NCBI RefSeq assembly: GCF_001677475.2
Contig: NZ_CP015229.1
Reading direction: 5' to 3' (one strand)
DNA: 64,000 nt
From: Escherichia coli
GTDB lineage: Bacteria; Pseudomonadota; Gammaproteobacteria; Enterobacterales; Enterobacteriaceae
Positions 25,901 through 60,052 of the stretch are shown here, piece by piece. Each line of letters starts with the position of its first letter. Within the stretch, counting starts at the first letter, position 1. Under the pieces are notes generated by a model that did no database searches, was not told the origin of the DNA, and worked only from the letters and a program-made list of their open reading frames with translations. A program made the position numbers and the translations under genes.

Positions 25901-26469
25901 CGGAATGGCTGACCGCACTGCAACAGGTCATGCCACGGGGTAAGGCATGGCCTCGTGATAACGACGCGGATTTAAACCGCTTTTTAAGGGCACTGGCAGA
26001 GCGTTTAACCCGCGTTGAATACGATGCCTCGCGCCTGCATGTGGAGATGCGACCGGAAACCACGCTCCAGCTGCTGCCGGAGTGGGAGCAATATCTGGCG
26101 CTGCCGGAATGCGGAATTGCCGCCACCACAACGGAAGCCCGCCGCCGGGCCGTTGTGGAGAAATACCGCCGCAAAGGCGGGCTGGCAACCTGGCAGATTG
26201 AAGCCGCTGCGGCGGCGCTGGGCTTCACCATTAAGGTGACGGCCGTTCTGCCGCACCACTGCCTGCGTGACTGCATGTACCCGCTGCATCCGGCACGGTA
26301 TCGCTGGCTGCTGAAAGTGGAAGTCCCGGACAACGATGCCGGGCGGTTTACCTGTATTGATGACGTCATGACGCCATTAATCAGCGAACGTACCCGCGAG
26401 CTGGAATGCCTGCTGAAGCATTACCGGCTGGCGGGTACGGAATATGAATATTATTACACCGGAGAATAA
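25885..26469 (+). CDS. tail protein gp48-like (DUF2313)
   Basis: 194 aa; LLP.G.AWPR....L...L...A.E motif. Confidence 0.7.
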   Translation: MAHSVTEWLTALQQVMPRGKAWPRDNDADLNRFLRALAERLTRVEYDASRLHVEMRPETTLQLLPEWEQYLALPECGIAATTTEARRRAVVEKYRRKGGLATWQIEAAAAALGFTIKVTAVLPHHCLRDCMYPLHPARYRWLLKVEVPDNDAGRFTCIDDVMTPLISERTRELECLLKHYRLAGTEYEYYYTGE

Positions 26470-26472
26470 TTT

Positions 26473-27468
26473 ATGTTTCACGTGGACAATAATACGGGTG
26501 TGCCTGTTATGCCGCCTGTTGCGGCTGAATTAAGCAAAACAACGCTTTATTTCACCGAAGGCGGGAACGGTATTCCACCCACTTATCCAGGACCAGACTG
26601 GTTTAATATTATTCAGTCTGAATTACTGAAAATTCTCGAAGAAGCCGGAATAACGCCGGATAAAGCAGATACCGGTCAGATAATGGCAGCCCTGAAAAAA
26701 CAGTTTATTACGAACAGTGGTTCAGCCGGAGCTATTGCCGGATTAACCGGTGAGAATAATACGTTCCCGTATTTTACCGGCGAAGACACAATGGCATTAA
26801 CGCCGCTCAGTGCGTTTGTGCGCAGTATTCTTGGAAAAAACAGCGGCAGTGAGTTTATTAAAGCAATTGGCCTGTCACCGGACACCCTTTTATCATCAGG
26901 GCGAATAACAGCATTAAGCGGTGGCTCACAGGGAGCAACCGGACTTCAGATGTACGAAGCGTATAACAACGGCTATCCCATTCCATACGGCAATGTGCTG
27001 CATCTGAAGGGGGGGACAGCGTCAGGTGAAGGCGAATTACTGATTGGCTGGAGTGGCACAAGTGGTGCACATGCCCCGGTTTACATCCGCTCAAGACGAG
27101 ACAATGACGAGGCGGAATGGTCTGAATGGGCACAGGTTTTTACCTCAAAAGACAGTTTCAACGCAGCAACTGCTACAAAACTCCAGACAGCCCGCAAGAT
27201 TAATAATGTGGCATTTGATGGCACCAGCGATATCACCATCAGCAGTACCGATTCTGGTGCTGTGCGTGATTTCAGATACACCAGCGAAGTGTTTCACAAT
27301 CCCGGAGGTAACGAAATCACCTGGACGTTTCGCGCGCCCTCAGGTTGCGTTTTGTCAGGTATTTACGTTCAGGAAACGGGAAGAAGTTCTTCGGATAACA
27401 TCGGCGGCGTGTATTACAAACAAACTCAGGTTTATATCAATGGCTCATGGCGCACCGTATCCGGTTAA
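26473..27468 (+). CDS. tail fibre protein (short, S-like)
   Basis: 331 aa; conserved fibre N-terminus (TEGGNGIPPTYPGPDWFNIIQSEL) and fibre repeat KLQTARKINNVAFDGTSDITI. Confidence 0.8.
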   Translation: MFHVDNNTGVPVMPPVAAELSKTTLYFTEGGNGIPPTYPGPDWFNIIQSELLKILEEAGITPDKADTGQIMAALKKQFITNSGSAGAIAGLTGENNTFPYFTGEDTMALTPLSAFVRSILGKNSGSEFIKAIGLSPDTLLSSGRITALSGGSQGATGLQMYEAYNNGYPIPYGNVLHLKGGTASGEGELLIGWSGTSGAHAPVYIRSRRDNDEAEWSEWAQVFTSKDSFNAATATKLQTARKINNVAFDGTSDITISSTDSGAVRDFRYTSEVFHNPGGNEITWTFRAPSGCVLSGIYVQETGRSSSDNIGGVYYKQTQVYINGSWRTVSG

Positions 27469-27482
27469 TTAAGGAGAAAATA

Positions 27483-28013
27483 ATGGAACTCAGAAACGTC
27501 ACGCGTTATTACCCGGAAGAAATGCCTTATGGTGAAAACATTCAGTATTTCCGCAGTGAAGACGGACAGGATTTTTATGAATCACTGGATAAATTCACGA
27601 AGAAATACAAATTGTGTATTCACCCTGACACAGGCGTGATTTTTTCGATGGCGGAAGATGTGTCCCGTCTTTATCCGGCTGGTTTCACTATTGTGGAAGT
27701 GGACGAACTGCCGGAGGGTTTTGGCATTGAAGCCTGCTGGTATTACCTGGATGGCGAAGTGCTGCCGGTTCCGGTTGATTATTCGCAACTGGCAGAAAAG
27801 CAACGCCAGCGTCTTCTGGCTGAAGCCAGGGACATCACCTCCGACTGGCGAACCGAGCTGGATCTGGGCACCATCAGCGACGATGACAAAGCCCGTCTTA
27901 CGCAGTGGATGGCATATATCAAAGCGGTGAAGGCGCTGGATTTAAGCACCGTTACTGATGAAGCCTCCTTTAATGCCATCAACTGGCCGGAGCGTCCCGA
28001 TGCCGCAGCTTAA
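27483..28013 (+). CDS. tail fibre assembly chaperone (U-like)
   Basis: ATG at 27483 after AAGGAG; 176 aa directly after the fibre gene. Confidence 0.7.
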   Translation: MELRNVTRYYPEEMPYGENIQYFRSEDGQDFYESLDKFTKKYKLCIHPDTGVIFSMAEDVSRLYPAGFTIVEVDELPEGFGIEACWYYLDGEVLPVPVDYSQLAEKQRQRLLAEARDITSDWRTELDLGTISDDDKARLTQWMAYIKAVKALDLSTVTDEASFNAINWPERPDAAA

Positions 28014-30249
28014 AGGTGTGATTAAAACGCCCACGGGAGAAGCGCTGGGCGGCGCAACCATTACTCTGACCTCCCTGCACAACCGTGCAGGGATCCTGAA
28101 AGGTGTTTTCAGCCACGTAACCACACAGAGCGGGGAGTACGACTTTTCCGTTCAGCCGGGTGTGTACAGCGTTCGCCTGACACAAAGCGAACAGCGCCTT
28201 TCAGAAATCGGTGTCATTCGTGTTTATGAAGATTCACAGGACGGTTCACTGAATGATTTTCTGGGTGCAACCGATATTGACCTGCGCCCGGAAGCCCTGA
28301 AGAAATTCGAAGAACTGGCGCAACAGGCGCAGCAAAGCGCGGAAGAAGCCGGAGAGCACGCGGACGCGGCTGAACAGGCCCGCCAGGATACAGAAACCCT
28401 CGCCGGGGAAATACGGCAGGATGCAGAAGAAATTGCAGGCAATGTGCAGAAAGCTGAAGAGCTTGCCTCTGAAACCAGTCAGAATGCAGCCCGCGCAGAG
28501 CAGGCCGTTAAGGATGCCGACACGATAGTCCGGAAAGCGGTCGATAAACTTGCTGATGCTGCAACGCTGACCGGCGAGGCAAAAGCCAGTGCCAAAGCTG
28601 CCGCACAAAGCGAACAGAATGCGGAAAATCACGCTGATAATGCAGCACAAAGCGCACAGCAGACCGCACAGGATGTGCAGGCAACGGTAACAGCCCGCAG
28701 TGATGCGGAACGTTTTGCGGGTGAGGCAGAAAACAGCGCACAGTCATCAGGCACAGCGCGGGACGAATCAGTCGATGCCGCCGAACGCGCCCGCCTTTAT
28801 CATAATGCCGCATCATCAGCTGCAACCAGCGCGGAAAATGCAGCAAATGCTGCACTCGGGCATGAAAACAGCGCCGCCGAATACGCCCGACAGGCTAAAG
28901 CCAGCCAGGATGCAGGTGCAGACAATGCGCAGGAAGCGAAACAGTACAGGGATGAGGCGCAGCAGATAGTTGATGACCTGAATGCAACAAATGCCTCCAC
29001 GACAGAAAAAGGTCTGGTGCAACTGTGTAGTGATACGGACAACGACAGCGAGGAACTGGCTGCCACGCCAAAGGCTGTCAAAACCGTCATGGACGAGACG
29101 AAAACAAAAGCGCCACTGGACAGCCCGGCCTTCACCGGCACCCCAACCACCCCAACCCCACCGGATGATGCCGCCGGTCTGGAAGCAGCGAACGCAGCGT
29201 TTGTGCGCAAACTGCTTGCTGCGCTGGTTGGCTCATCGCCGGAAGTTCTGGACACCCTGAACGAGCTGGCAGCGGCGCTGGGCAATGACCCGAACTTTGC
29301 GACGACAATCACAAACGCGCTGGCAGGCAAACAACCGCTTAATGACGTCTTAACGGCAATCAGCGCACTGACGCAACGGGCAGATAATCTTCTGTACTTC
29401 AATACAGACGGGAATGCCTCACTGTCTCTGCTGTCAGAGAAGGGCCGCGCATTGCTGGCGCATGACACGGCTGAAGCCATGCGCACGGAGCTTGAGCTGA
29501 GCACGGCTGCGACGATGGAACCCCAGAGTGATATCCGTGACCGCACACCGGGCAGGCTGGCCCTGTCCGGGATGTATGGGTTTGGACAGGCATTCACCAG
29601 CGCCGAAGCTCTGTCATTTAACGGACAGGCTGATTTCGTTATATGGCTGCAGACAGTCACCCCGGGGCGTTATGCGGTCAGTATTGCGGACTCCTCCACG
29701 CTGCTGGTGGGCACCACGAAATTTAACGGTATCATTGATGTGATGTGGTCACCCTCTGATAACGATGGTTCAGACTCAGCGCGTAAATTCAAAACGCTGC
29801 TGTACTACAACCAGTATTACGAGGATGAGCACAGCATACATTGTATGCGTTATCGCTACAGTGGTAACAGCTGGAATGCAACATCAAGCCTTATTGTGTA
29901 TGACGGCAACTCCCTGGCATATCTGATGTCCTCAACCGCCGGTAATGGTCCGTTCTCATATTACCAATACCCGGCCGTCGGTGTGCCGATTATGGCGGTA
30001 TATCAGGGAGAAAGTTTTGGTGAAAATGCTTCTCTGGGACTCGGTGATACTGTGCCGGGTTCCCGTCTTGGTCCTCTGGCCATGAGTGCACAGGTTAGTG
30101 ATACAGGGACATACGCATCCTCACCGCAGGTTGTGATTGGCGGTGCCGGTGAATACAACTTCCCCGGTCGTTACACGGCGCTTTCGGGCCTGGGTAACAA
30201 TTATGGTACTCAGCGTGGCTTTATCGGTCTTTTTGTACGCATTGAGTAA
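28000..30249 (+). CDS. second, long tail fibre (prophage side-tail-fibre type)
   Basis: 749 aa; N-terminus MPQLKGVIKTPTGEALGG.TITL typical of StfR/StfE-type fibres, long A/E/Q coiled coil, fibre repeat (TTEKGLVQLCSDTDNDSEELAATPKAVK). Confidence 0.8.
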   Translation: MPQLKGVIKTPTGEALGGATITLTSLHNRAGILKGVFSHVTTQSGEYDFSVQPGVYSVRLTQSEQRLSEIGVIRVYEDSQDGSLNDFLGATDIDLRPEALKKFEELAQQAQQSAEEAGEHADAAEQARQDTETLAGEIRQDAEEIAGNVQKAEELASETSQNAARAEQAVKDADTIVRKAVDKLADAATLTGEAKASAKAAAQSEQNAENHADNAAQSAQQTAQDVQATVTARSDAERFAGEAENSAQSSGTARDESVDAAERARLYHNAASSAATSAENAANAALGHENSAAEYARQAKASQDAGADNAQEAKQYRDEAQQIVDDLNATNASTTEKGLVQLCSDTDNDSEELAATPKAVKTVMDETKTKAPLDSPAFTGTPTTPTPPDDAAGLEAANAAFVRKLLAALVGSSPEVLDTLNELAAALGNDPNFATTITNALAGKQPLNDVLTAISALTQRADNLLYFNTDGNASLSLLSEKGRALLAHDTAEAMRTELELSTAATMEPQSDIRDRTPGRLALSGMYGFGQAFTSAEALSFNGQADFVIWLQTVTPGRYAVSIADSSTLLVGTTKFNGIIDVMWSPSDNDGSDSARKFKTLLYYNQYYEDEHSIHCMRYRYSGNSWNATSSLIVYDGNSLAYLMSSTAGNGPFSYYQYPAVGVPIMAVYQGESFGENASLGLGDTVPGSRLGPLAMSAQVSDTGTYASSPQVVIGGAGEYNFPGRYTALSGLGNNYGTQRGFIGLFVRIE

Positions 30250-30263
30250 TGAGGAAATCAGGC

Positions 30264-30839
30264 ATGAAAATCAGAGCGGTGAAAGGTATCAGAAACGCAC
30301 ATTATCTTGAAAATGGTGCGGTTGACTGCGAGGTGTTATTTGAAGGTGAAACGGAGTTCGCCCTGTATACTGCCATACAGGATGATATGGCCCCGACAGG
30401 CCAGCACATCTGGCAGGAGCTGCAAAGCGGGAAATGGGGCGAAATCGCCCCGTTCACCGTCACGCCGGAACTTATTGCAGCGGCAAAGGATGCCAAAAGG
30501 CGGGAAATTGAGGCATGGCGCGACAGTCAGGAAAACGTTGAGTTTATTTTCACGTTTGATGGCCGTCGTTTTGATGGCGGAAAAACCTCGCAGTCACGCC
30601 TTGCCCCCGTGGTTGCAGCAGCGCAGGCCGGACTGCTTCCGGAGGGATTTTTCTGGACTGATGCGGATAATAACAACGTCGTACTGACCAGGGAGAAACT
30701 TATTGCGCTGAACGATGCCATGATGGTGGCCATGGTGGCGGAGGGCTTTAAAATCCACGAACGCCAGCGCGAGATGAAAGAGCAACTTTCCCTGCTGTCC
30801 ACACTGAGCGATATAAGAGCGTTAACGCCCGGTTATTAA
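30264..30839 (+). CDS. tail fibre assembly protein (Tfa-like)
   Basis: ATG at 30264 after GAGGAA; 191 aa with Tfa-type N-terminus. Confidence 0.75.
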   Translation: MKIRAVKGIRNAHYLENGAVDCEVLFEGETEFALYTAIQDDMAPTGQHIWQELQSGKWGEIAPFTVTPELIAAAKDAKRREIEAWRDSQENVEFIFTFDGRRFDGGKTSQSRLAPVVAAAQAGLLPEGFFWTDADNNNVVLTREKLIALNDAMMVAMVAEGFKIHERQREMKEQLSLLSTLSDIRALTPGY

Positions 30840-30863
30840 GTCATCATTTTGTATAGTTTATAA

Positions 30864-30887
30864 CGATCGATACAATCGTATCGATCG
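30864..30887. promoter_or_regulatory. 10-bp inverted repeat carrying two GATC sites upstream of com-mom
   Basis: CGATCGATAC-aatc-GTATCGATCG; GATC at 30865 and 30883; Mu mom is known to be Dam/OxyR-controlled through upstream GATCs. Confidence 0.5.
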
Positions 30888-30961
30888 TCAGTTTGCATCA
30901 TCTGTGATTAAATACCCTGGCCCTCAGGGCTATCGTATCTGGTTAATACACAGGTGGGATC

Positions 30962-31147
30962 ATGGATGCTGTTCGTTGTAAAAACTGCAATAAATTGCTG
31001 TTTAAAGGAAGTTTTAAGCATATAGAAATCAAATGCCCTCGTTGTAAACGTTACATTGTCATGTCGAGTGCCCGGGAGCATCCCACGGAGCTGTATTGTG
31101 GGAAAAGAGAAGAAATCACGCATCCTTACAAAACCCTGCGTTATTGA
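30962..31147 (+). CDS. com: Com zinc-finger translational activator of mom
   Basis: 61 aa, C..C...17 aa...C..C (CKNCNKLLF...IKCPRCKRY), overlaps mom start as in Mu. Confidence 0.9.
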
Positions 31148-31793
31148 GTATGAAGGCCGTATTGTCGGCTATGGTTCAAGGGAACTGCGCGTTGAAACCA
31201 TATCCTGCTGGCTGGCCCGCACAATCATTCAGACAAAGCACTATTCCCGCCGTTTTGTGAATAACTCCTGGTTGCATCTGGGGGTATTCAGCGGACGTGA
31301 TCTGGTTGGCGTTCTCCAGTGGGGATACGCCCTTAATCCCAACTCAGGGCGTCGGGTCGTGCTGGAAACGGATAACCGGGGCTATATGGAACTGAACCGC
31401 ATGTGGTTACACGACGACATGCCCCGCAACTCTGAATCACGGGCTATCAGCTACGCACTGAAAACCATCAGGTTACTGTATCCATCAGTGGAGTGGGTTC
31501 AGTCCTTTGCAGACGAACGCTGCGGACGTGCAGGTGTTGTGTATCAGGCATCTAATTTTGATTTTATTGGTAGCCATGAAAGCACGTTCTACGAGCTGGA
31601 CGGCGAGTGGTATCACGAGATAACGATGAACGCGATTAAGCGTGGAGGACAACGAGGCGAGTATTTGCGGGCTAATAAGGAGCGGGCGGTGGTACACAAA
31701 TTTAATCAGTATCGCTACATCAGATTCCTGAACAAGCGCGCAAAAAAGCGACTAAATACTAAGCTATTCAGGATTCAGCCATACCCGAAGTGA
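31098..31793 (+). CDS. mom: Mom DNA-modification protein
   Basis: GTG at 31098 with GGAG 7 nt upstream gives 231 aa (length I recall for Mu Mom); sequence [46 protein letters not shown]. Confidence 0.85.
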
Positions 31794-31810
31794 TCCCACG
31801 TAATGAATAA

Positions 31811-31837
31811 AAAAGCAGCGGCCAATGCCGCTGTTTT
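31811..31837 (+). terminator. intrinsic terminator after mom
   Basis: CAGCGGC-CAAT-GCCGCTG followed by TTTT. Confidence 0.75.
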
Positions 31838-32227
<390 letters not shown>

Positions 32228-32356
32228 TTACCCGATTCTACGAGTTGTCATTTGTTACCGGTCAGTCTACACATTTCAGATGCTGCGTTAAAAAACCCAA
32301 GTACTTCAAGTAGCACATCGTCATCAACACCCAGCCCCAAGATACGGTGATAAAAT

Positions 32357-33391
32357 TCAAGCCTTAAGAGGCTTTGTGTATGTTCGTGTAATCCATCCAG
32401 TAATAAACTCGTCCCCTGATTTAACCTGCACGAAAAGCCATTGGCGATCTTTTTTATCTAAAACAGCCACTATAGTATTTTTGCCAATGCATTCAATCAC
32501 CTCACTATTTATAGAAGGACTGACGTGTAATCTTACGTTCTCACCAGTTATAAAACGAAAACCATTGAGATCTTCCCAACTAATTTCTTTGTTTTCTTTA
32601 ATTAATTGTTGTTTTGATATTGGTTTATCCTCAAACAGAGATATAAAATATGATTCTGCCTTGTGTATTCCCAGCAAGGTTTTCTCTTTTCCGTAATCAA
32701 TAAAAGCACCAAACACAACTTGAGAAAATATAACCATTAGTAACCATTGCAGTGGATAAGGAAGCTCTTTAAATGAATCAACAAACTTTGAGCTAGGTTT
32801 ATTTAATCCTTTATTTTGAACATTACTTTTGGTGTGTGATGTTTCAGTAGCACCTTCAGCATAAGCCTGCGCAATAGATGAAATCCCCTGCTCTATTATT
32901 TGATGTAATGAAGCATTTCTTGTTCTAGCATAGTGATCTAGTACTTTCTTTATGTCTTGGCTTACATCTGTTTTATAACTTGCACTTTGTTGTAATTCTT
33001 TAAGTATCGCTTGCATGTTATTTAAACCAGCTTGCTTATTAAGCACCTCAAGCTGTTTTCGTAATGGCATAGCTATTTCGGCCTGTTTCCTTAGCATTTG
33101 AATATATCTATTTGCGTCATGAGGGAAAAGAGCCTGAGTCTGTTTCTGTAAAATCGCGATATGTTCACGATACTTGCTGCCTATTCCAGCCAAGTTCGGC
33201 ATACTAGCCAATTGTTTTCGAAGAGAGTTACTAATTACAGCTTGTCTATTCAATCTTGTCATATTTTGAAAAGAATGTTTTTCTATTCCTAATTGTTTTT
33301 GCAAGATCGCTACGTGATCTTTGTATGATGGAATGAGCACTGACTGTTTATACAGTAACTTCAACTCATTAGAATTAGTAATTTTTGTCAT
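32357..33391 (-). CDS. repeat-containing protein with one TM segment and C-terminal SH3b-like domain
   Basis: ATG at 33391 (the track start 33424 is TTG); five L(Q/R)KQ repeats, TM LQWLLMVIFSQVVFGAFIDYG, C-terminus ...RLHVSPSINSEVI..IGKNTIVAVLDKKDRQWLFVQVKSGDEFITGWI; AT-rich. Confidence 0.6.
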   Translation of the reverse strand: MTKITNSNELKLLYKQSVLIPSYKDHVAILQKQLGIEKHSFQNMTRLNRQAVISNSLRKQLASMPNLAGIGSKYREHIAILQKQTQALFPHDANRYIQMLRKQAEIAMPLRKQLEVLNKQAGLNNMQAILKELQQSASYKTDVSQDIKKVLDHYARTRNASLHQIIEQGISSIAQAYAEGATETSHTKSNVQNKGLNKPSSKFVDSFKELPYPLQWLLMVIFSQVVFGAFIDYGKEKTLLGIHKAESYFISLFEDKPISKQQLIKENKEISWEDLNGFRFITGENVRLHVSPSINSEVIECIGKNTIVAVLDKKDRQWLFVQVKSGDEFITGWITRTYTKPLKA

Positions 33392-33465
33392 ATTATTCCA
33401 TTTATATAATAGAATATTACGCAACCAATGTTTTATTGATTGCGTTAATCTTTAACACAGAAAGA

Positions 33466-33942
33466 TCATTTGCCTCGTTTAATACATCCATCCATTTTGG
33501 CTTGTTGATACAACTTACTTAGCCCAGAAAGAGGGAATGTAGCAATTTTTTCATTATCAACATAAGCATCAATCATATTAGCATTTGAATCTGCTGCATC
33601 TTGCCAAAAGGCATACCACCAAGAATCTCCAACCATTGATCCAAGATTGCTAAAAGGATATTGCTCACCATCTATAGTTAATACTATTTTATTCTTGTCA
33701 GCATTATACTCTTTTTTATTATTCGACGAACTTAGCAACAAGCCTAAACTACCTGCACTATCTGGTGAACCATACATGAATCCCATATCACATAAAAAAC
33801 TTATCTTATCACCATTATGATTATGGATTGTATATTCTCTCCCCCCTCTCTCTTCAATTACATTCCATTGTAGAGGATCAATTTTTGCAAATGTTCCTGC
33901 TGAAACTAACGATACAAATAATAAAAACCATCTCATATTCAT
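33466..33942 (-). CDS. secreted/periplasmic protein of unknown function
   Basis: Signal peptide MNMRWFLLFVSLVSAGTFA-KI; 158 aa; AT-rich. Confidence 0.6.
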   Translation of the reverse strand: MNMRWFLLFVSLVSAGTFAKIDPLQWNVIEERGGREYTIHNHNGDKISFLCDMGFMYGSPDSAGSLGLLLSSSNNKKEYNADKNKIVLTIDGEQYPFSNLGSMVGDSWWYAFWQDAADSNANMIDAYVDNEKIATFPLSGLSKLYQQAKMDGCIKRGK

Positions 33943-33964
33943 TCTTTTCGCTTCTTATCTGTAA

Positions 33965-34315
33965 TTATTCTGCAATATCATTTGCCCATTGCACGGCAGC
34001 AAAATGAGTACCCAAACCACTCAGGAAAGCAATTACCCCCAAAACAATACTTGCTGCTGTTGATTCAAACAAAGTACCAATACTATAGCCAATAGCTCCC
34101 CATACTAAGCTAAATACAATCATCAATGGTATTGCCAGAAATTTTATTCTTAAACTAAAAATCAGTCCAAGAAAAGAACCGCCAAAGGCCCACCATGATT
34201 TAGACATTAAACCTATCAGTATTGACAGAATTCCTATTTCAATAAAGAGAATATTAGATTGCTCTTCATTGAATTTCGCATTTGTTACACCTTTACGAAC
34301 ATGTTCAGATGACAT
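33965..34315 (-). CDS. small 4-TM inner-membrane protein
   Basis: 116 aa with four hydrophobic spans; first gene of the minus-strand AT-rich cassette divergent from immI. Confidence 0.6.
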   Translation of the reverse strand: MSSEHVRKGVTNAKFNEEQSNILFIEIGILSILIGLMSKSWWAFGGSFLGLIFSLRIKFLAIPLMIVFSLVWGAIGYSIGTLFESTAASIVLGVIAFLSGLGTHFAAVQWANDIAE

Positions 34316-51692: not shown

Positions 51693-52590
51693 GCACTGGA
51701 AAAACATTACTATTTATAAACTTTCTCGTGAGGCGGATCTGACCGACTTAGAAGATAAAAAGAAAATGATCCTTTTCACGCCATGCGGTAGTCAGGATAT
51801 GGCCAAGTTCGGTTTTGTATCGCCATTTGGTGATAATTCCGAAGTTATCGCTATGCATGGAAATGGTTTTATCCTTGTTGAAGCAAAGCGCGAAACAAAA
51901 ATTCTTCCCCCGCCGGTTATCCAGCGAGCTATTCAAGAAAAAATTGAAAAACTTGAGCAAGAACAAGCGCGTAAACTGAAGAAAACAGAGAAGGATTCCC
52001 TGAAAGACGAAGTTCTGCATTCTCTTCTGCCACGGGCTTTTTCAAAGTTTTCTGTTATCCAGGCGATCTACGATGGTTCAACTAAACGTATCTATATCAA
52101 TGCCAGCGCGCGGCAGGCAGAGGATATGCTCGCACTTATGCGTAAGTCTCTGGGTTCTCTTCCTGTTGTTCCCCTAAGTGTTGAAAATCCCATTGAATTA
52201 ACGCTGACCGACTGGGTACGTGATGGTAGTGCTCCACAGGGATTTCAAATGGGGGATGCGGCAGAACTTAAGGCAGTGCTTGAGGATGGCGGTATTGCCC
52301 GAGTGAAAAAGCAGGATTTGGGAAGCGATGAAATTTCCACACACCTGGAAGCTGGCAAGCTCGTCACTAAGTTGGCACTCGACTGGCAGAACCGCATTAA
52401 ATTTACACTGGACCATAACTTCAGCCTTACCAGCGTCAAATTTGCGGATGAATTGCTTGAGCAGAACTCTGATATTGATAGTGAAGATGTTGCGCAGCGA
52501 CTGGACGCAGATTTCTTCCTGTTGACCAGTGAAATTTCGTGCCTGGTTGATGCTCTGGTAAATGCCCTTGGCGGAGAGGCTAAGCAGTGA
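51685..52590 (+). CDS. hrdC: RdgC-homolog recombination-associated protein
   Basis: 301 aa; long identical runs to E. coli RdgC ([62 protein letters not shown]). Confidence 0.9.
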
Positions 52591-55500
52591 AAGAGCTGTG
52601 CTATGGATCTGTTTGCAGTGGAATTGAAGCCGCGAGTATTGCCTGGGAACCGTTGGGTATGCGTCCGGCGTGGTTTGCTGAAATCGAGCCTTTTCCATCT
52701 GCCGTTCTTGCGCTCCGCTGGCCCCATGTCGCCAACCTTGGCGACATGACAAAACTTGCCAAAAAAGTCTTGGCTGGGGAAATCGAATCCCCTGACGTGC
52801 TCGTCGGGGGAACACCATGTTTTACCGCGGGGCATATGGTTCTTTGTAAAAATGGTTATAAACCAATAGAAGATGTTTGCCCTGGCGATTACGTAGTCAG
52901 TCATCTCGGGCGGTTACAACAAGTAAAAAGAGTTGGTTCAAAAATAGCTAATACGGGGTTACTTAATGCCGTTGGGCAGCCTTTAGGTATAAGAACAACC
53001 AATGACCATCCCTTCCTGGCTGTTCGGTGGAAAGCCCAAAACACCCGGAAAAATGGCACATATTTTAAGAGAGAGTTGTTGTCTGAACCGGAATGGCGAG
53101 CAGCATGTGATATGCCGGGATATCAATGGTGCGCTCTAACTAATTTCAATATTGCATCTCCAGATATTTGTTCTCGGTTCTTGTCTGAAGAACAGGCTAT
53201 GTATCTTGCGGGCGCTTATGTTGGCGATGGATATATTAGGAGATGGAGAGGTAAATCTAAGAAGGCGGTTGTTTTTGGCATAAATTGCCAGAAATTGAGA
53301 AAGTTTCATTGCCGCATACCAGAAAACATATTTTCCGTGGCAAGCGAAATCCGAGGGAGCATCAAAGTAACCTTGAATGATACGTGTTATGCCAATTGGC
53401 TTAATGAACATTTTGGCGAGTTAAGCCATGCTAAGCGTATCCCTGCATGGGTGATGTCGCATCCATTGCGTCATGTGTTTTTACAAGGCTATCTTGATAC
53501 TGATGGGACACCAAGTGGTAAAGCGGGATTTAGAATTAATAGTGTTAGTCCTGCGCTTGCTTGGGGCGTTGCGGGGTTGTCACAGACTTGTGGTTATGTT
53601 TCTTCGGTCAGCTTTATTGAAGTTGAGCCCAAAAAAGTGATCGAGGATCGCGTGGTAAATCAACGGAATTATTATCAGGTAACAATCTGCCCGCAGAAAT
53701 TGTCACGTAAATCAAGATTGGCTCATGGAATGCTTTTACGAACAGTCAAAGAGTTTAAATCGGTAGGCCTAGATACTGTATACAACATAGAAGTCGAAGG
53801 TGATCATTCCTATATCCTCAATGGTGCGGTGGTCCATAACTGTCAGGCATTCAGTATCGCGGGCTTACGTGGTGGGCTTGATGATGAACGCGGCGCGCTA
53901 ACTTTGAAGTATGTGGAGCTTGCAAATGCAATTGACGACAAACGGTCTGAGTCCTTCCTCAAACCGACAGTTATCGTCTGGGAAAATGTCCCAGGAGTCC
54001 TGTCATCGGCAGATAACGCCTTCGGATGTTTCCTTGCCGGATTGGCTGGAGAAGATGCGCCATTTGAACCAGGTGATCGACCTGAATCAGGAAAAAGTAA
54101 CGCGTTCTGGCGGTGGGATGGCAAAACCGGTTGCCATGCTCCAAAGTGGCCGCAGTGTGGTTGTATTTATGGACCGCAGCGAAAGGTGGCCTGGAGAATC
54201 CTTGATGCCCAATACTTCGGAGTGGCACAACGACGCCGACGCGTGTTTGTTGTCGCAAGTGCTCGAACAGACCTCGATCCCGCAACGGTACTTTTTGAGT
54301 TCGAAGGCGTGCGCCGGAATATTGCGCCGAGCCGAAAAAAGAAGGAAATCGCTTCCGCCATTATTGCAAATGGCGCTGCAATCAGTGGCGAAAGCCTAAA
54401 TCCATGCCTACACGCTGACATGCCACCCGGTATGAAATCGACGAAAGCCGTAAACGCTTTCAGGATGGCGGCATTTGGGGAATATATTGACGATGAAACC
54501 GCATCGACAGTAAAGGCAAGAGATTTTAAAGATGCCACTGACCTTGCCGTTTTTAGCAGCACAGGAGCAGGTTTTTGGTCAGAAGGGCATGGTACATTGC
54601 GGGCACGTGAGCAAGAAAGCCATGAGCATCTTGTTACATTGGCTTTTCCTGAGCGTATGAGCGGTACACAACATGCTGCAACTAAGAATACTTCACCATC
54701 TCTAATGGCTAAAAATCCAACAGCTGTTTGCTATGAAGTAAGAAACGCAGAAGTAGCTGTCCGCCGTCTTACCCCTGTCGAATGTGAAAGGCTGCAAGGT
54801 TTTCCTGATGGGCATACGTTGATCCCGACGGAAAAGCGTAAAAAAGTTAATTCAGATGAACTGGCATATCTTCGCAATCACTATCCAGATTTAAGCGAAG
54901 AAGAGGCCGCGATGCTTGCAGCTGACGGACCGCGTTACAAAGCGATCGGCAATAGTATGGCAATACCAGTAATGCGCTGGATTGGCGATCGGATTACTAA
55001 GGCCGTATGTCGGCAGAAAGAAGGAAGTGAAACAAAAGAGCGAAAAGTTAAACCAGCGGCAGAATTCGAACGGTCCATATTCAAATGGGCTGGTGGAAAA
55101 TTTGGTGTTCTGGAACAAATCTTTCGCTATTTGCCAGAAGGGAAGCGCCTGATTGAACCTTTCGTTGGTGGCGGAGCTGTCTTCATGAATGCCGGATACC
55201 AGGAAAATCTGCTAAATGATGTGAATGCTGACCTGATTAACTTTTACAAGACTCTGCAACGCGAGGCGCATTCACTTATCACTCTGGCACATCGTTTCTT
55301 CCAGGACTACAACACACAGGAAGGATACCTGGCAGTACGGAATGCGTTTAACAAACAAGTCTATGATGATTTACATCGCGCAGCGGCGTTTTTGTTCCTG
55401 AACCGACATTGTTTTAACGGATTGACGCGTTACAACCAGGCCGGTGAGTTCAATGTCGGTTACGGGAAGTATAAAACTCCGTATTTCCCATTACAGGAGA

Positions 55501-55844
55501 TGGAAGCCTTCCTCGGTGCGGAAGGGCGGTCTGAGTTTGTATGCGGTGATTTTGCAGCGGTGATTGAAGCTGCCGGAGAAGGAGATGTCATCTTTTGCGA
55601 TCCGCCGTATGAACCGCTTCCAAATACAGAGGGATTCACGAACTATTCCGGTCATGACTTTAAGTTTGAAGAGCAAAAACGCCTGGTGTCTCTGTTGACG
55701 GATGCTCATCGTCGAGGTGCAAAGGTTCTCATTACTAACAGTGGCGCGCCAAACATCAGAGAGCTTTATCATGACAGTGGCTTCAGAGTGGAACCTCTTT
55801 TTGCCAGACGTTCTGTGTCTTGTAAGGGGACACTCGAGGTGTAG
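52587..55844 (+). CDS. dmt: Dmt: C5-cytosine MTase (N-terminal, intein-interrupted) fused to Dam-type N6-adenine MTase (C-terminal)
   Basis: Motif I SVCSGIE; motif IV split GGTP|C..intein..HN|CQAFSIAG; motif VI VWENVPG; C-terminal half FKWAGGK...EPFVGGGAV...DPPY. Confidence 0.9.
52818..53840 (+). mobile_element. 341-aa class-1 intein with LAGLIDADG homing-endonuclease domain
   Basis: Starts CFTAGHMV (block A), TTNDHPF (block B), [11 protein letters not shown] and [10 protein letters not shown] (LAGLIDADG x2), ends [21 protein letters not shown] followed by +1 Cys. Confidence 0.88.
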
Positions 55845-55863
55845 CTCATGACGTTTTGGGTAT

Positions 55864-55891
55864 ATTGCTCTAATAAATTTATTAGTGTAAT
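55864..55891. promoter_or_regulatory. overlapping inverted C1 operator pair (Op72a/b-like) on the ban-operon promoter
   Basis: ATTGCTCTAATAAATTT 17/17 (55864-55880) and, on the minus strand, ATTACACTAATAAATTT 15/17 (55875-55891); -35 TTGCTC (55866), 17 bp, -10 TAATAT (55889). Confidence 0.85.
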
Positions 55892-55894
55892 ATC

Positions 55895-56080
55895 GCCTCA
55901 ATGAATCGTGATTTATAGAGCGATTTAGCTGTTAGCCGCGACAGGCGCGGCGGTAAGCATGGCTGGGCCTAGTCCTCCCAGACAAACCACCGAGTTGCCA
56001 GGTTGACCATGCGCCTAAGTGGCAACGCCGAAGTGCGTTACGAGCTTCCAGTTTGCCCATCTTCGGGTGGGCGTTTTTTT
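55895..56080 (+). ncRNA. structured leader/sRNA ending in an intrinsic terminator
   Basis: Hairpins 55935-55951, 55963-55981, 55994-56026, then GCCCAT-CTTCGG-GTGGGC + T7 (56055-56080); no credible ORF. Confidence 0.55.
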
Positions 56081-56261
56081 CAGGGTTTTCGTCATAGTTA
56101 GCGACTTTGCGGCGGTTTAGAAACTGACCATTAAAGTAAATGCAAACGATGATCTGATGATGGTAGCGGCCTAAGAAGCCAGATGCCACGGGGTATGAGT
56201 CGTCCCCCGTCAAAAAATCGACCGCAGAGTGTCCCCGTCTGTGTATTAGGGAACGGGGAGG

Positions 56262-56342
56262 CACAACAGGTAAGGGCGCTGGTGTGATTAACCAGATGAA
56301 CGAGAAGGGGCCATCTGTTGGTCAGCGTCCTTTCCTGTTGCG
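56262..56342 (+). ncRNA. structured repeat module A (long terminal helix)
   Basis: CACAACAGGTAAGGGCGCT...AGCGTCCTTTCCTGTTGCG closing helix; internal hairpins TGGT-gtgatta-ACCA and CAGATG...CATCTG. Confidence 0.5.
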
Positions 56343-56545
56343 TTTTCTTTTCAGCGTAACAGCGGTGCTTAACAGCACTTTGGGTACAGTTCCACGAATT
56401 TACGGGTATATCCCGTCATGCTGAAGGCGCTAATCACGCTGGAAGCCAGGGTTGTGCATCCCCTGTTACCGAATTGCAGCCAGGGCGCGGTGCGCCGAAA
56501 AGCATACGGAGGTGGAAGCCCTCGCCGGAGACGTACCCGGCAAGT

Positions 56546-56621
56546 GATGGTGTAGCTCAGCGGTTAGAGCGGTTGACTGTTAATCAACGGGTCGATGGTT
56601 CAAATCCATCCACCATCGCCA
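56546..56621 (+). tRNA. trnA: tRNA-Asn (GTT)
   Basis: Manual cloverleaf: acceptor GATGGTG/CACCATC, D arm GCTC/GAGC, anticodon arm GTTGA-CTGTTAA-TCAAC, T arm GATGG-TTCAAAT-CCATC, encoded CCA. Confidence 0.9.
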
Positions 56622-56623
56622 AT

Positions 56624-56699
56624 GCCGGTTTAGCTCAGTTGGTAGAGCGCCTGCCTTGTAAGCAGGATGTCAGCGGTTCGAGTCCGTTAATCGGCACCA
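56624..56699 (+). tRNA. trnT: tRNA-Thr (TGT)
   Basis: Acceptor GCCGGTT/AATCGGC, anticodon arm CCTGC-CTTGTAA-GCAGG, T arm AGCGG-TTCGAGT-CCGTT, encoded CCA. Confidence 0.9.
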
Positions 56700-56700
56700 G

Positions 56701-56810
56701 CACAACAGGTAAGGGTATTTTGCGACGTCGGAGATCGCCGAGCTTGGCAGAGGGTTCGAATCCCTACGAAGTACCCTTACCGTTGTGATGAATGCGCAGG
56801 CTGATGCGCG
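56701..56810 (+). ncRNA. structured repeat module B (terminal helix with bulged A + perfect T-arm + trailing hairpin)
   Basis: CACAAC(A)GGTAAGGGTA...TACCCTTACCGTTGTG; internal AGGG-TTCGAAT-CCCT; trailing GCGCA-ggctga-TGCGC; starts 2 nt after tRNA-Thr. Confidence 0.55.
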
Positions 56811-56915
56811 AAAGACATTGCAGCTATTGCGGAAAAGAGCTGTTCGGCGGGGCAATTAAACGCCCGTGAGAGTCTGAAATAACCGCAAGCCGGAGATCAG
56901 CACCGGTCATCACAA

Positions 56916-56983
56916 CACAACAGGTAAGGGCATTCTCCCTTATGGGGCTTGGCTTAAATGCATCGAGTGCTCTTACCGTTGTG
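56916..56983 (+). ncRNA. structured repeat module C
   Basis: CACAAC(A)GGTAAGGGCATTC...GAGTGCTCTTACCGTTGTG closing helix with the same bulged A. Confidence 0.5.
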
Positions 56984-57119
56984 ATGAAGTGCAGCTCTTT
57001 GAAGCAACCAGAAGATAAGCATCTGGCTTCACAACATAAACCGCAGGAACGACCAATAAACGGTAGTCCGTATGGAGAACACCCCGTTGAGGAAGAGGCC
57101 TGGCCGGAACCGTAACCGG

Positions 57120-57240
57120 CACTACAACGTTGAGAACACTGGCGTAACGGGGTCATATCCCAATCTACGAATAAATGTTGCGTTGCAGCGTGACAACCAG
57201 TGTTCTCAACATTGTGGTGAATGCACAGGCTGATGTGCCG
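57120..57240 (+). ncRNA. structured repeat module D
   Basis: ACAACGTTGAGAACACTGG...CCAGTGTTCTCAACATTGTGG helix; internal GGG-TCATAT-CCC AATCTAC; trailing GCACA-ggctga-TGTGC (compensatory relative to B). Confidence 0.5.
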
Positions 57241-57396
57241 CAACTACAGTAGTGCGCGCTTTGCGGGGCTTGCTACAACCCTGTGTCGGAGTTCAGCACC
57301 GACCATCACAGTTTGATTCTCTGGCATGAGCATAACGCTGAAATAAGTCCAGTCTGGTGCGGCCCGATCACCCGCCGTTAGCTCCACGAAACGGAG

Positions 57397-57496
57397 CACG
57401 TAACAGGTAAGAGCATTCTCCTGTAACGGGTTCATATCCCAATCTACAGGTCCACCAGGAATGCTCTTTCCGTTGCGGTGAATGCGGCTAAGCGCA
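57397..57496 (+). ncRNA. structured repeat module E
   Basis: CACGTAAC(A)GGTAAGAGCATTC...GAATGCTCTTTCCGTTGCGGTG helix; internal CCTGTA-ac GGG-TTCATAT-CCC aatc-TACAGG; trailing TGCG-gctaag-CGCA. Confidence 0.5.
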
Positions 57497-57626
57497 CGCG
57501 GGGAAATGGTTATATCTGTCCATTATTTCTCCTTATTTCCCCGTCCACGGTGGATAACCAGCCAAAGGACACCGGGAGGCACCCGGCACCGCAACCTTAT
57601 TTCCCAACCAGTAATGAGGTTAATAA

Positions 57627-58052
57627 ATGCTCGGTATTCTCAAAAAGAAATTCCGCAAAGCGGCTGGCGGAGTCAAGAAGATGGAAAACCGTGATGCGGT
57701 GGAAGCGACTGTCTGGGGCGCATATTCCATTGCATACTCTGACGGCACCTGCGATGCGAAAGAAATTGCAGTATTGGAAAAAACCATTGCAGCACTTCCT
57801 GCCTTTGCGCCGTTCTCCGGTGAAATTGCCCAGATGAGCGCCAATATTCGCGCTCAATATGAAGCCTCGCCGCGCCGAGCGAATGCCCAGGCTTTACGTG
57901 AACTGGCTGACGTGTCTGGAACTAATGATGCGGTAGATGTTCTGTGCCTATGCATTGATATTGCTGACCAGGATGGCATTGGGGCAGAAGAGCAGGAGCA
58001 ATTGAAGAAAATTGCCCAGGCTCTTCAATTGCCACTGGAACAGTATATCTGA
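57627..58052 (+). CDS. tciA: TerB-domain protein TciA
   Basis: 141 aa; TerB-like features (AY.IA.SDG..D..E...L...I; DGI...E...L..IA..L). Confidence 0.7.
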   Translation: MLGILKKKFRKAAGGVKKMENRDAVEATVWGAYSIAYSDGTCDAKEIAVLEKTIAALPAFAPFSGEIAQMSANIRAQYEASPRRANAQALRELADVSGTNDAVDVLCLCIDIADQDGIGAEEQEQLKKIAQALQLPLEQYI

Positions 58053-58216
58053 TGGTTATAAAAGCACGTCTAATTCTGGCTTTGGTTTTTCTCGTGCTAT
58101 CTGTGCTGGTGGATTTCACCAGCACAATCCTGTCGGTTTTATCCGACGGGGCGTTGGTAGCAGTAGCTGTAACATTGGTATGGCCGATATTTAAACCAGC
58201 CTCGAAGGATCAGTGA
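58052..58216 (+). CDS. small 2-TM membrane protein (tciB slot; below the ORF-track cutoff)
   Basis: Hand translation: MVIKARLILALVFLVLSVLVDFTSTILSVLSDGALVAVAVTLVWPIFKPASKDQ; start overlaps the tciA stop. Confidence 0.5.
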   Translation: MVIKARLILALVFLVLSVLVDFTSTILSVLSDGALVAVAVTLVWPIFKPASKDQ

Positions 58217-58323
58217 TGAGCTTCTGGGATTTTGCAGATAAGTATCCAATTGTTCTCATTATCATTGTTGCCATAGTTGTAGGCGGTATTGTTAGCGCCA
58301 TTGAAGCACTTAGGAAACAGTAA
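58216..58323 (+). CDS. small 1-TM membrane protein (tciC slot; below the ORF-track cutoff)
   Basis: Hand translation: MSFWDFADKYPIVLIIIVAIVVGGIVSAIEALRKQ; TGATG overlap with the previous ORF. Confidence 0.5.
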   Translation: MSFWDFADKYPIVLIIIVAIVVGGIVSAIEALRKQ

Positions 58324-58326
58324 TCC

Positions 58327-58402
58327 GGCCCTTTAGCTCAGTGGTTAGAGCTGGCGACTCATAATCGCACGGTCACCGGTTCAAGTCCGGTAGGGGCCAC
58401 CA
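58327..58402 (+). tRNA. trnI: tRNA with CAT anticodon, Ile2 (lysidine) type
   Basis: Cloverleaf with acceptor GGCCCTT/AGGGGCC, loop CTCATAA, T arm ACCGG-TTCAAGT-CCGGT, CCA; closely resembles E. coli ileX as I recall it. Confidence 0.85.
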
Positions 58403-58687
58403 TATTTGGTTGTAACACGGCGTCTGGCACATGCGTCGTTAGCGGTCTGGTAACGTTAAAGGGGTTACCTTTTCCCCTAGCTCAGGCAACAAACCAGGTA
58501 GCCGAAATGTGCAAGTCACCGTTGGAGGGATAGCGGATACAGGGACTCACCATCCTGGCGATTCGGTGTGACAGCCGGGAAGAGTCCGGCGCATTAATCC
58601 TGATTTTCTGGTGATGACTCATATCGTTAGGAGTGATTTGAGTATGCCGATTATATCTGACATTCAGCACGCCTGGGTGGAGTGCTA

Positions 58688-60052
58688 ATGTCTGCATCCC
58701 CTCTTGAATCCATGCCAAATTCCCTTAGTGCAGAACAAGCTGTACTTGGTGGCTTAATGCTTGATAACTGCCGCTGGGATGAAGTTGCAGATCGTATAGT
58801 TGCTGATGATTTTTATACCAGTGCTCATCGTGAAATTTTCAGTGAGATGGAGAGGTTATTAAGTCATGGCAAACCGATTGATTTGATAACACTTGCTGAA
58901 GCACTTGAACAGAACGGTAAATTAGAACGCGCCGGTGGTTTTGCGTACCTTGCGGAGATGTCAAAGAACACGCCCAGCGCGGCAAATATTTGTGCTTATG
59001 CGGATATCGTTCGTGAACGCGCGGTTGTTCGTGAAATGATTTCCGTCGCAAATGAAATAGCTGAAGCTGGATATGCGCAGGATGGCAGGGGCAGCAATGA
59101 ATTGCTGGATATGGCCGAGCGCCGCGTTTTTGAAATAGCTGAAAAACGACAAAAGAGCGGTAGTGGTCCAAAAGATATCGCCAGCATTCTCGATGCAACG
59201 GTATCTCGCATAGAAGAGTTGTTTCAGCGACCGCATGATGGTGTAACGGGGCTTGATACCGGATTTACCGATCTCAATAAGAAGACGGCAGGACTTCAGG
59301 CGTCCGATCTCATTATTGTCGCCGCCCGCCCATCGATGGGGAAGACTACGTTTGCGATGAATCTCGTCGAAAATGCCGCAGTCCGTAACGATAAGCCCGT
59401 ATTGGTTTTTAGCCTTGAGATGCCGAGCCACCAGCTGATGATGCGCTCACTGGCTTCTCTTGCACGCGTTGATCAGACTCGTATTCGAACAGGGCAACTT
59501 AACGACGAGGATTGGGCGCGGGTTTCTGGCGCAATGGGGATTCTGTTGGACAAGCAGAATATTTTTATTGATGACTCAAGCGCCCTGACACCTACAGAGC
59601 TTCGTTCCCGCGCTCGTCGTGTTTATAAAGAAAATGGTGGTTTGAGCATGATTATGATCGACTACCTGCAACTTATGCGCGTCCCCGAGCTGCAAGATAA
59701 CCGAACGCTGGAAATTGCCGAGATTTCTCGCTCACTGAAGGCTTTGGCGAAGGAATTACAAGTACCGGTGGTGGCATTGTCACAACTTAATCGATCGCTT
59801 GAACAGCGTGCGGACAAACGACCGGTAAATTCAGATTTACGTGAATCAGGAGCAATTGAGCAGGACGCAGACCTGATCATGTTTCTGTATCGTGACGAAG
59901 TTTATCACCCGGATAGCGAAATGAAGGGCATTGCCGAGGTAATTATCGGTAAGCAACGAAATGGCCCAATTGGCACGGTGAGATTGGCTTTTAACGGCCA
60001 ATACTCACGGTTTGATAACTATGCCGGTGCTGACTGGCAAGAGGATTATTAA
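58688..60052 (+). CDS. ban: Ban, DnaB-family replicative helicase
   Basis: About 454 aa from ATG 58688; DnaB N-terminal domain (AEQAVLGGLMLDN), Walker A ARPSMGKT, Walker B MIMIDYLQL. Confidence 0.93.
   Translation: MSASPLESMPNSLSAEQAVLGGLMLDNCRWDEVADRIVADDFYTSAHREIFSEMERLLSHGKPIDLITLAEALEQNGKLERAGGFAYLAEMSKNTPSAANICAYADIVRERAVVREMISVANEIAEAGYAQDGRGSNELLDMAERRVFEIAEKRQKSGSGPKDIASILDATVSRIEELFQRPHDGVTGLDTGFTDLNKKTAGLQASDLIIVAARPSMGKTTFAMNLVENAAVRNDKPVLVFSLEMPSHQLMMRSLASLARVDQTRIRTGQLNDEDWARVSGAMGILLDKQNIFIDDSSALTPTELRSRARRVYKENGGLSMIMIDYLQLMRVPELQDNRTLEIAEISRSLKALAKELQVPVVALSQLNRSLEQRADKRPVNSDLRESGAIEQDADLIMFLYRDEVYHPDSEMKGIAEVIIGKQRNGPIGTVRLAFNGQYSRFDNYAGADWQEDY

Follow-up and report, generated by a model that had tools for sequence, protein, structure and literature searches.

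The window analyzed here, a stretch of 64,000 nucleotides (nt) of Escherichia coli DNA (contig NZ_CP015229.1), is a P1-type prophage, and the subject of this study is the leader of its ban operon, which lies between the C1-controlled promoter of ban and a terminator at 56080. Positions 55800 to 56560 are 99.5% identical to phage P1 (NC_005856) and to many P1-type plasmid prophages. In the P1 record, dmt ends in this stretch, which also holds the divalent C1 operator Obanab (Op72ab in older usage), the promoters P1ban and P2ban, and a misc_feature called “dicF-like region”; the order past Pban is trnA, trnT, tciABC, trnI, and ban. The C1 operator is asymmetric and 17 base pairs (bp) long, and here an overlapping inverted pair of operators (55864 to 55891) lies over a sigma-70 promoter:

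55864 to 55880, plus strand: C1 operator Op72a (Obana), ATTGCTCTAATAAATTT, matching the consensus at 17/17 positions and coinciding with the annotation
55875 to 55891, minus strand: C1 operator Op72b (Obanb), ATTACACTAATAAATTT, matching at 15/17 positions, overlapping Op72a by 6 bp and coinciding with the annotation
55865 to 55893, plus strand: sigma-70 promoter P1ban, with TTGCTC (55865 to 55870), a 17-bp spacer, and TAATAT (55888 to 55893), the same as the annotated P1ban

Across the window, operator matches with ≤3 mismatches numbered 6, against 0.16 expected by chance. An earlier reading made from the letters alone (the sequence-only reading) had described a perfect operator pair overlapping a promoter of TTGCTC, 17 bp, and TAATAT. 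The promoter was confirmed and Op72a is indeed perfect, but with Op72b at only 15/17 the pair is not. P1ban is weak relative to the consensus (7/12) and was missed by a generic promoter scan; its transcript is predicted to start at approximately 55900 to 55901, and the annotated P2ban was mapped via the alignment to a position about 14 bp upstream of it. The promoter and operator of ban were already known. At or 1 nt from the predicted start, 55901 to 55918 read AUG AAU CGU GAU UUA UAG (MNRDL, then stop), which may be a leaderless five-codon open reading frame (ORF) inside the 5′ hairpin, possibly by chance.

The leader ends in the following hairpin:

56054 to 56080, plus strand: intrinsic terminator, U-GCCCAUC-UUCG-GGUGGGC-G and then U7, found by scan and folding

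With its G+C-rich hairpin and U tract, this sequence is a canonical intrinsic terminator by prediction. The stem of 7 to 8 pairs carries a 4-nt UUCG loop and folds at −12.8 kcal/mol (z = −3.3; 0/200 shuffles as good), and the hairpin is kept in P1, P7, SJ46, and D6 with a T run of 6 to 8. The strong terminator that the sequence-only reading had drawn as GCCCAT-CTTCGG-GTGGGC plus seven T's was borne out except for its loop, which is 4 rather than 6 nt long. The distances given with it, about 470 bp to the first transfer RNA (tRNA) and 2.6 kilobases (kb) to ban, were also correct, with 466 bp separating the terminator from tRNA-Asn (56546) and ban beginning at approximately 58689 by alignment with P1. 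Past the terminator, RNA genes that include tRNA-Asn and tRNA-Thr occupy about 1.7 kb ahead of tciABC, tRNA-Ile, and ban. No plus-strand promoter between 56080 and ban was annotated or found by a scan that is itself insensitive, having missed Pban also, and the P1 record annotates no terminator between Pban and ban. The gene dmt ends at 55844, and the hairpin at 56054 to 56080 is the first terminator past it; RNA coming from the dmt operon would also end here.

Three hairpins between promoter and terminator, also proposed in the sequence-only reading, folded in their expected places at 55935 to 55951 (−10.5 kcal/mol), 55963 to 55981 (−4.9 kcal/mol), and 55994 to 56026 (−9.4 kcal/mol). Single-sequence thermodynamics was uninformative (z = −1.6 for the whole leader and −0.1 for the conserved element). 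The folding energy of the whole leader is unremarkable; the real support for the hairpins comes from covariation among relatives. The leader is organized as follows:

55902 to 55927, plus strand: stem-loop at the 5′ end of the transcript, confined to the P1 lineage and the same in P1, P7, and SJ46, −7.0 kcal/mol, z = −2.0
55916 to 56050, plus strand: full extent of the match to the “DicF-upstream” covariance model R1, 96.7 bits, E = 4e−33, the sole copy in the window
55936 to 55950, plus strand: helix P2 (CCGCG/CGCGG), the first of the three hairpins, from the family alignments
55951 to 55992, plus strand: junction helix, CGGU (55951 to 55954) with ACCG (55989 to 55992), from the family alignments
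55994 to 56026, plus strand: helix P4 (GUUGCCA/UGGCAAC) with a conserved 19-nt loop, the third hairpin, from the family alignments

The junction helix encloses the strand GCAUGG (55957 to 55962) and the variable hairpin P3 (55963 to 55981, the second of the three hairpins), and the P4 loop bases CCAUGC (56007 to 56012) pair with 55957 to 55962 in a pseudoknot. The core of the element in P1 is 55936 to 56026, in which P2, the junction helix, P3, P4, and the pseudoknot are all retained and paired. A short substitute closing helix, GCUG (55928 to 55931) with CAGU (56049 to 56052), appeared in constrained folding only.

In a sensitive search of complete E. coli genomes, P1-type plasmids matched, as was to be expected, and window positions 55936 to 56030 were in addition ~77% identical to a block of the chromosome; 4272 of the 5426 genomes (~79%) had a match. 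The copy of K-12 is part of the Qin prophage, where it stands between ydfC and dicB and ends ~25 nt before DicF; lambdoid phage copies include those of mEp460, cdtI, Stx2c phages, and one Salmonella phage, among many. Pattern scans added copies in Citrobacter, Serratia (S. symbiotica), Trabulsiella, Erwinia, and Izhakiella. A match in a Desulfuromonas metagenome-assembled genome (locus L163, 25.6 bits) was regarded as an artifact, as the locus had been picked by the search pattern itself. The homolog set is made up mostly of Enterobacterales prophages closely related among themselves; two alignments were prepared from it, one with 26 representatives (A1) and the other, model based, with 74 (A3). 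The fold of the family comprises an outer helix, P2, the 4-bp junction helix CGGU/ACCG, the variable hairpin P3, P4 with its conserved 19-nt loop, and a 6-bp pseudoknot of junction strand GYAUGG with loop strand CCAURC. In A3, 95.7% of cells were paired, and in A1, 92.3%, against 32 to 54% (A3) and 30 to 54% (A1) in slid controls. Pairs changed on both sides numbered 17 of 36 in A3 and 13 of 36 in A1, and neither value was reached by any of 500 shuffles. The sole variable pair of the pseudoknot, at a position left free in the search patterns, was U-A in 65 cases, C-G in 4, and U-G in 2 and was never unpaired. The invariance of several loop bases is partly circular because the patterns had fixed them. 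Rfam 15 has no family over the element, and the only Rfam matches in the leader were RyhB and nuoG, both weak and driven by the terminator. The comparative evidence thus indicates that the three hairpins are the core of a widespread, conserved, four-helix pseudoknotted RNA rather than a P1-specific structure.

The comparison of P1 with P7 gave a second line of evidence. Across the element the two phages differ by 13%, versus ~4% over the wider region, and the flanks are nearly identical. From P1 to P7, a U-A pair of the junction helix becomes C-G, a C-G pair of the pseudoknot becomes U-A, and P3 changes from CUGGG/CCCAG to CGGGG/CCCC. As these differences preserve the structure, it can be argued that selection maintains the fold in phages of the P1 type, which lack DicF.

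Every annotated context of the element has a repressor gene upstream and dicB, kil, or exo downstream on the same strand. In 37 of the 46 distinct downstream contexts, the first run of at least five T's, 56 to 118 nt past the core, stands directly behind a hairpin of −9.6 kcal/mol or lower; in most of the other nine, the T run falls inside a small-RNA hairpin and GGCGG...CCGCC-T5 follows, and a Shigella locus (L165) is the only context without a T run. The hairpins past the element are DicF, DicF-like variants with GGCGGUAYCAGUUU, or unrelated, that of Qin being DicF itself (Rfam, 77 bits; locus L002, 2622 to 2673), and the DicF-like cassettes are less well conserved than the element that precedes them. 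DicF arises from early Rho-independent termination and RNase E processing, and dicB is expressed from the dicBF read-through RNA, which RNase III cuts (PMC5069750, PMC9438474). RNase E makes the 5′ end of DicF (PMC5069750), which by sequence lies in the AU-rich spacer that directly follows the element. Many lambdoid loci (such as L006, L007, L034, L179, L187, and L190) also have a boxA-like single-stranded GUGCUCUYUUC (UGCUCUUU in Trabulsiella) 2 to 3 nt 5′ of the outer helix, where the Qin type has GUGCGCUUCC instead.

By position, P1 resembles these loci, in synteny with Qin and the lambdoid phages: a terminator-ended RNA lies directly past the element in an early operon. All that is left of the DicF slot is UUCCAGUUU, with the terminator ~8 nt past the element. 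The “dicF-like region” of the P1 record covers P1 68791 to 68892 (approximately window 55988 to 56090), and the similarity has been in GenBank since 2004. The DicF model (RF00039, gathering score 48 bits) gave no match in 55880 to 56560 up to an E value of 10, nor in 55000 to 60000; the positive controls, loci L002 and L003, scored 77 bits. A duplex of the P1 tail with the ftsZ leader, in whose ribosome-binding region the antisense seed of DicF would act, was no better than chance (155/200 shuffles equal), and by inspection just AGUUU is common to the DicF seed. The P1 leader was therefore rejected as a DicF gene, and the “dicF-like” label stems from homology with what lies upstream of DicF rather than with DicF itself.

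Set beside the Qin dicBF leader (ydfABC-dicF-dicB), the P1 leader shares the element directly upstream of DicF, an intrinsic terminator past it with protein genes behind that depend on read-through, and the DicF-dicB spacer (STnc100-like), which recurs upstream of tciA. It differs in having neither DicF nor the ftsZ antisense seed, in the position of the element (28 nt from the transcription start, versus after three ORFs in Qin), in the replacement of the family's outer helix GUUGUGG/CCACAAC, and in its repressor, C1/Bof rather than DicA. The spacer homology was found in the tciA leader at 57462 to 57593, with a partial Rfam STnc100 match of 39 bits (gathering score 47), and is preceded by the boxA-like UGCUCUUU at 57462 to 57469. 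Sequence from either side of DicF in Qin is thus used again in the P1 ban operon, at two places separated by 1.4 kb.

The terminator itself belongs to another module. Phage D6 matches P1 from TTTGCCCATCTTCGGGTGGGC-T6 onward and has no similarity upstream of that, which makes the terminator the left edge of a separate conserved block extending from 56054 to the tRNAs and common to D6. The D6 junction falls exactly at the terminator, and the leader is thus the junction of two modules. No C1-type operator was found in D6 (locus L192, 1788 to 2521). There, a sigma-70-like promoter, TTGATT-17-TAGAAT (1788 to 1816), is followed by ~690 nt of unrelated noncoding leader and then the same terminator hairpin; a long leader ahead of this terminator is thus seen again, with another module upstream.

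A C1-controlled promoter with a strong terminator ~175 nt on and no promoter behind it implies a short RNA, read-through, or both. The sequence-only reading had offered these as alternatives, either a discrete small RNA (sRNA) or read-through or antitermination. Its logic is sound, as no plus-strand promoter to ban was found, but the precedent of DicF suggests that the answer is probably both. The reading tentatively preferred here, to which we give slightly less than an even chance, is that of a dicBF-type leader that would mostly stop and yield a C1-controlled RNA of ~175 to 180 nt, with a fraction reading through to the tRNAs, tciABC, and ban. Polymerases from Pban, together with those arriving from the dmt operon, would mostly stop at 56074 to 56080; the product released from Pban would be a C1-controlled, highly structured RNA of ~175 to 180 nt, and transcripts entering from dmt would end at the same terminator. 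The fraction reading through would continue into the ~1.7 kb of RNA genes, tciABC, tRNA-Ile, and ban.

How the read-through would be set is less certain. A cis action of the element on RNA polymerase or Nus cofactors, an RNA antitermination analogous but not homologous to HK022 put, is possible but on balance unlikely. It is favored because the element always stands before the first terminator of an early operon and stays while the terminator cassette changes, and because the contexts have no common protein family and none annotated as an N-type antiterminator. Among nine adjacent ORF products scanned, one Kil family, one weak family described as “protease,” and otherwise families of unknown function were found, none of them N type; no N is annotated in cdtI or mEp460, and P1 has none of these genes. 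P1 bac-1 lysogens reportedly express ban constitutively while C1 holds the other lytic operons off, and read-through would therefore need no other induced phage factor. Finally, Rho would otherwise be expected to act on 1.7 kb of RNA that is not translated.

In HK022, the cis-acting putL and putR RNAs render RNA polymerase terminator resistant (PMC9378689). They do so without phage proteins, and their action is sensitive to mutations in the zinc-binding domain of the polymerase beta′ subunit. The element resembles put as a structured RNA of early operons, in lambdoid phages without N at the usual place, that is transcribed before the first terminator and has no evident phage protein partner. 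It differs in architecture, with four helices and a pseudoknot in ~110 nt versus two stems in ~70 nt, and in number, with a single copy each in cdtI, mEp460, and the window versus the L and R pair of put, one behind each early promoter. In lambda, the constitutive promoter PR′ is followed by the 6S RNA and tR′, and Q protein engaged at the promoter is needed for read-through. The P1 arrangement is alike in its strong terminator within ~190 nt, with a short RNA as default and the long operon transcribed only on read-through; P1 differs in having no Q and in a promoter that is repressor controlled, not constitutive. The nut sites of lambda and the rrn leaders combine boxA with structured RNA and Nus factors, boxB being bound by N protein. 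Many lambdoid members of the family are similar in their boxA-like motif just before the outer helix, whereas no good boxA stands there in P1 or in the Qin type, no N-like protein was found nearby, and the element is far larger than boxB. A broader proposal, which must be considered rather unlikely, is that the element represents a second class of protein-independent processive antiterminator RNA, put-like yet unrelated, that would carry RNA polymerase past the DicF terminator into dicB, kil, and exo in lambdoid phages without N at the usual place and would have been captured by P1 for transcription from Pban to ban, through a strong terminator and ~1.7 kb of untranslated RNA genes.

Several observations weigh against a dicBF-type leader in which the element sets read-through. 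The family's outer helix GUUGUGGY/RCCRCAAC was not found in P1, whose flanks, like those of P7, are unrelated to the family, and nothing comparable to the boxA-like motif of many lambdoid members occurs in P1 at that place. Model R1 gave no match in HK022 22000 to 34000 (PL and PR regions), a comparison made in one direction, and each phage has one copy of the element, with no second on the PR side; on these two grounds, a put homolog or paired site was rejected. In Qin-type prophages, the element lies >700 nt and three ORFs past the promoter. No conserved antiterminator pairing between element and terminator was found, and D6 has the terminator and downstream block without the element, which makes them separable modules. 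The published P1 RNA sequencing papers that were found do not address this site. A leaky terminator alone would also account for ban expression.

The last point leads to the alternative that survives best, although it too is improbable on present evidence: that the terminator is passively leaky, read-through being simply the unterminated fraction, and that the element works in the released ~180-nt Pban RNA (5′ hairpin, element, and terminator hairpin with U tail), which would act in trans or bind a protein and be made once C1 repression lifts. Such an RNA would be built like a stable enterobacterial sRNA, its 5′ stem-loop being followed by a structured body and then by a Rho-independent terminator with U7, and the invariant unpaired stretches and pseudoknot of the element suggest a binding partner. 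The better conservation of the element compared with the DicF-like cassettes behind it, and the compensatory changes between P1 and P7 that maintain it where DicF is absent, also fit this. Against it, no target or partner was identified, the P1 tail is without meaningful complementarity to the ftsZ leader (155/200 shuffles as good), and in lambdoid relatives the RNase E cut that creates the 5′ end of DicF (PMC5069750) would place the element on an upstream fragment lacking its own terminator.

It is considerably less probable that the hairpin is mainly operon punctuation, terminating the uhr-hrdC-dmt operon and late transcripts crossing dmt, and that the element is a relic of recombination with a lambdoid leader, roleless in P1. 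The position of the hairpin as first terminator after dmt would suit this, as would the mosaic nature of the leader, with the D6 junction exactly at the terminator, the Qin-like sequence again upstream of tciA, and the loss in P1 of the outer helix and any DicF seed. A relic, however, would not keep its helices and pseudoknot by compensatory substitutions between P1 and P7 beside identical flanks, and Pban lies upstream of the terminator, so that its transcripts must meet it.

Poorer still is the case for a processing platform, a fold positioning RNase E, RNase III, or RNase P cuts that would give the downstream RNAs (DicF, or in P1 the RNA block and tRNAs) defined ends. The RNase E cut (PMC5069750) in the AU-rich stretch that directly follows the element, the wealth of RNA genes needing processing in the P1 operon, and a four-way junction that is loosely cloverleaf-like are compatible with such a role. 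In P1, however, the terminator stands between the element and the RNAs to be processed, a 110-nt pseudoknotted fold with invariant loops far exceeds the needs of known RNase E guide hairpins, and no tRNA, transfer-messenger RNA (tmRNA), or RNase P-substrate model matches the element. A riboswitch-like attenuator, with the element as metabolite or ion aptamer and the terminator as expression platform, is just as improbable: a conserved pseudoknotted multihelix RNA with invariant unpaired bases precedes an intrinsic terminator in a 5′ leader, by merely ~8 nt in P1, but the spacing ranges from ~8 nt to >100 nt, the terminator cassettes are interchangeable, the candidate pairings seen by eye in P1 were rejected (UGGGC/GCCCA is lost in P7, and CCGAAG/CUUCGG is just 6 bp), and no Rfam riboswitch family matches.

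Further RNA and gene features were observed around the leader. Sixty nt past the terminator, 56136 to 56174 read GUAAAU and then GCA AAC GAU GAU CUG AUG AUG GUA GCG GCC UAA, encoding ANDDLMMVAA and a stop; the SsrA tag of E. coli is ANDENYALAA. The tag-like frame occurs also at locus L198 (1551 to 1588) and in the matching stretch of L199 and is kept in P1, SJ46, and D6, with V changed to A in P7. The Rfam model tmRNA_permuted gave 24 bits (E = 0.007) on it, below the gathering score, and ARAGORN reported no tmRNA there. Klebsiella phage-plasmids of ~111 kb carry a diverged copy, ANDDVVLMAA and a stop, in which frame, length, ANDD start, and AA-stop are kept and the middle codons differ; these copies scored 31 and 30 bits with tmRNA_permuted and have a tmRNA-type T-arm match ~290 nt downstream, then ...CUC-U-CCA. 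The region could possibly be a tmRNA-like RNA so far unrecognized. The terminator hairpin was considered as the acceptor-like stem of such a permuted tmRNA and rejected by inspection, with no CCA and a misplaced G-U pair.

Repeated long-stem RNA modules, each beginning GCACAACAGGUAAGGG, lie at 56261 to 56343 and 56700 to 56787, the second containing a tRNA-like T arm, GAGGGUUCGAAUCCCUA (56750 to 56766), closed by a ~16-bp helix. At ~56799 to 56966, about 170 bp are extra relative to the P1 reference and are flanked by a duplicated 29-bp stretch (P1 locus 4971 to 4999); in the area of 56261 to 56966, the P1 record annotates two opposite-strand ORFs, plp and upl. Between the two modules, 56356 to 56469 look like another structured RNA of the ban leader: a conserved GUAACAG ... 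CUGUUAC forms a potential 7-bp closing helix, which would also enclose the T-arm-like GGGUUGUGCAUCCC, and a hairpin inside covaries (GGUGCU/AGCACU in P1, AAUUGCU/AGCAAUU in SJ46, and CCAUUGC/GCAUGG in D6). Upstream, dmt (52587 to 55844) encodes 1085 amino acids here and 754 in the P1 reference. An insert of ~1 kb (52820 to 53841) splits its cytosine-methylase motif, GGTPC/QAFS, and looks like an intein with a homing endonuclease, because it starts CFTAGHMV, ends VVHN before C, and has LAGLIDADG-like blocks.

Literature searches on the ban operon and Op72 returned nothing relevant, and the element is not mentioned in the DicF literature as far as this was accessible. Apparently new are the recognition of the hairpins as a widespread covarying pseudoknotted motif, the separateness of this motif from DicF, and the explicit prediction of a terminator-ended Pban RNA. 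If the dicBF-type reading of the ban leader is true, it would account for how a promoter with a strong terminator in front of it can express ban and the phage tRNAs, and it predicts a C1-controlled RNA of ~180 nt that has seemingly never been looked for. It also places next to DicF, among the oldest known sRNAs, a conserved structured RNA that is present in most E. coli genomes and absent from Rfam. Should the element control read-through, antitermination by RNA alone would gain its second natural example, and the element would offer a compact part for terminator-proof transcription units; should it not, it would still be a candidate regulatory RNA tied to prophage induction.

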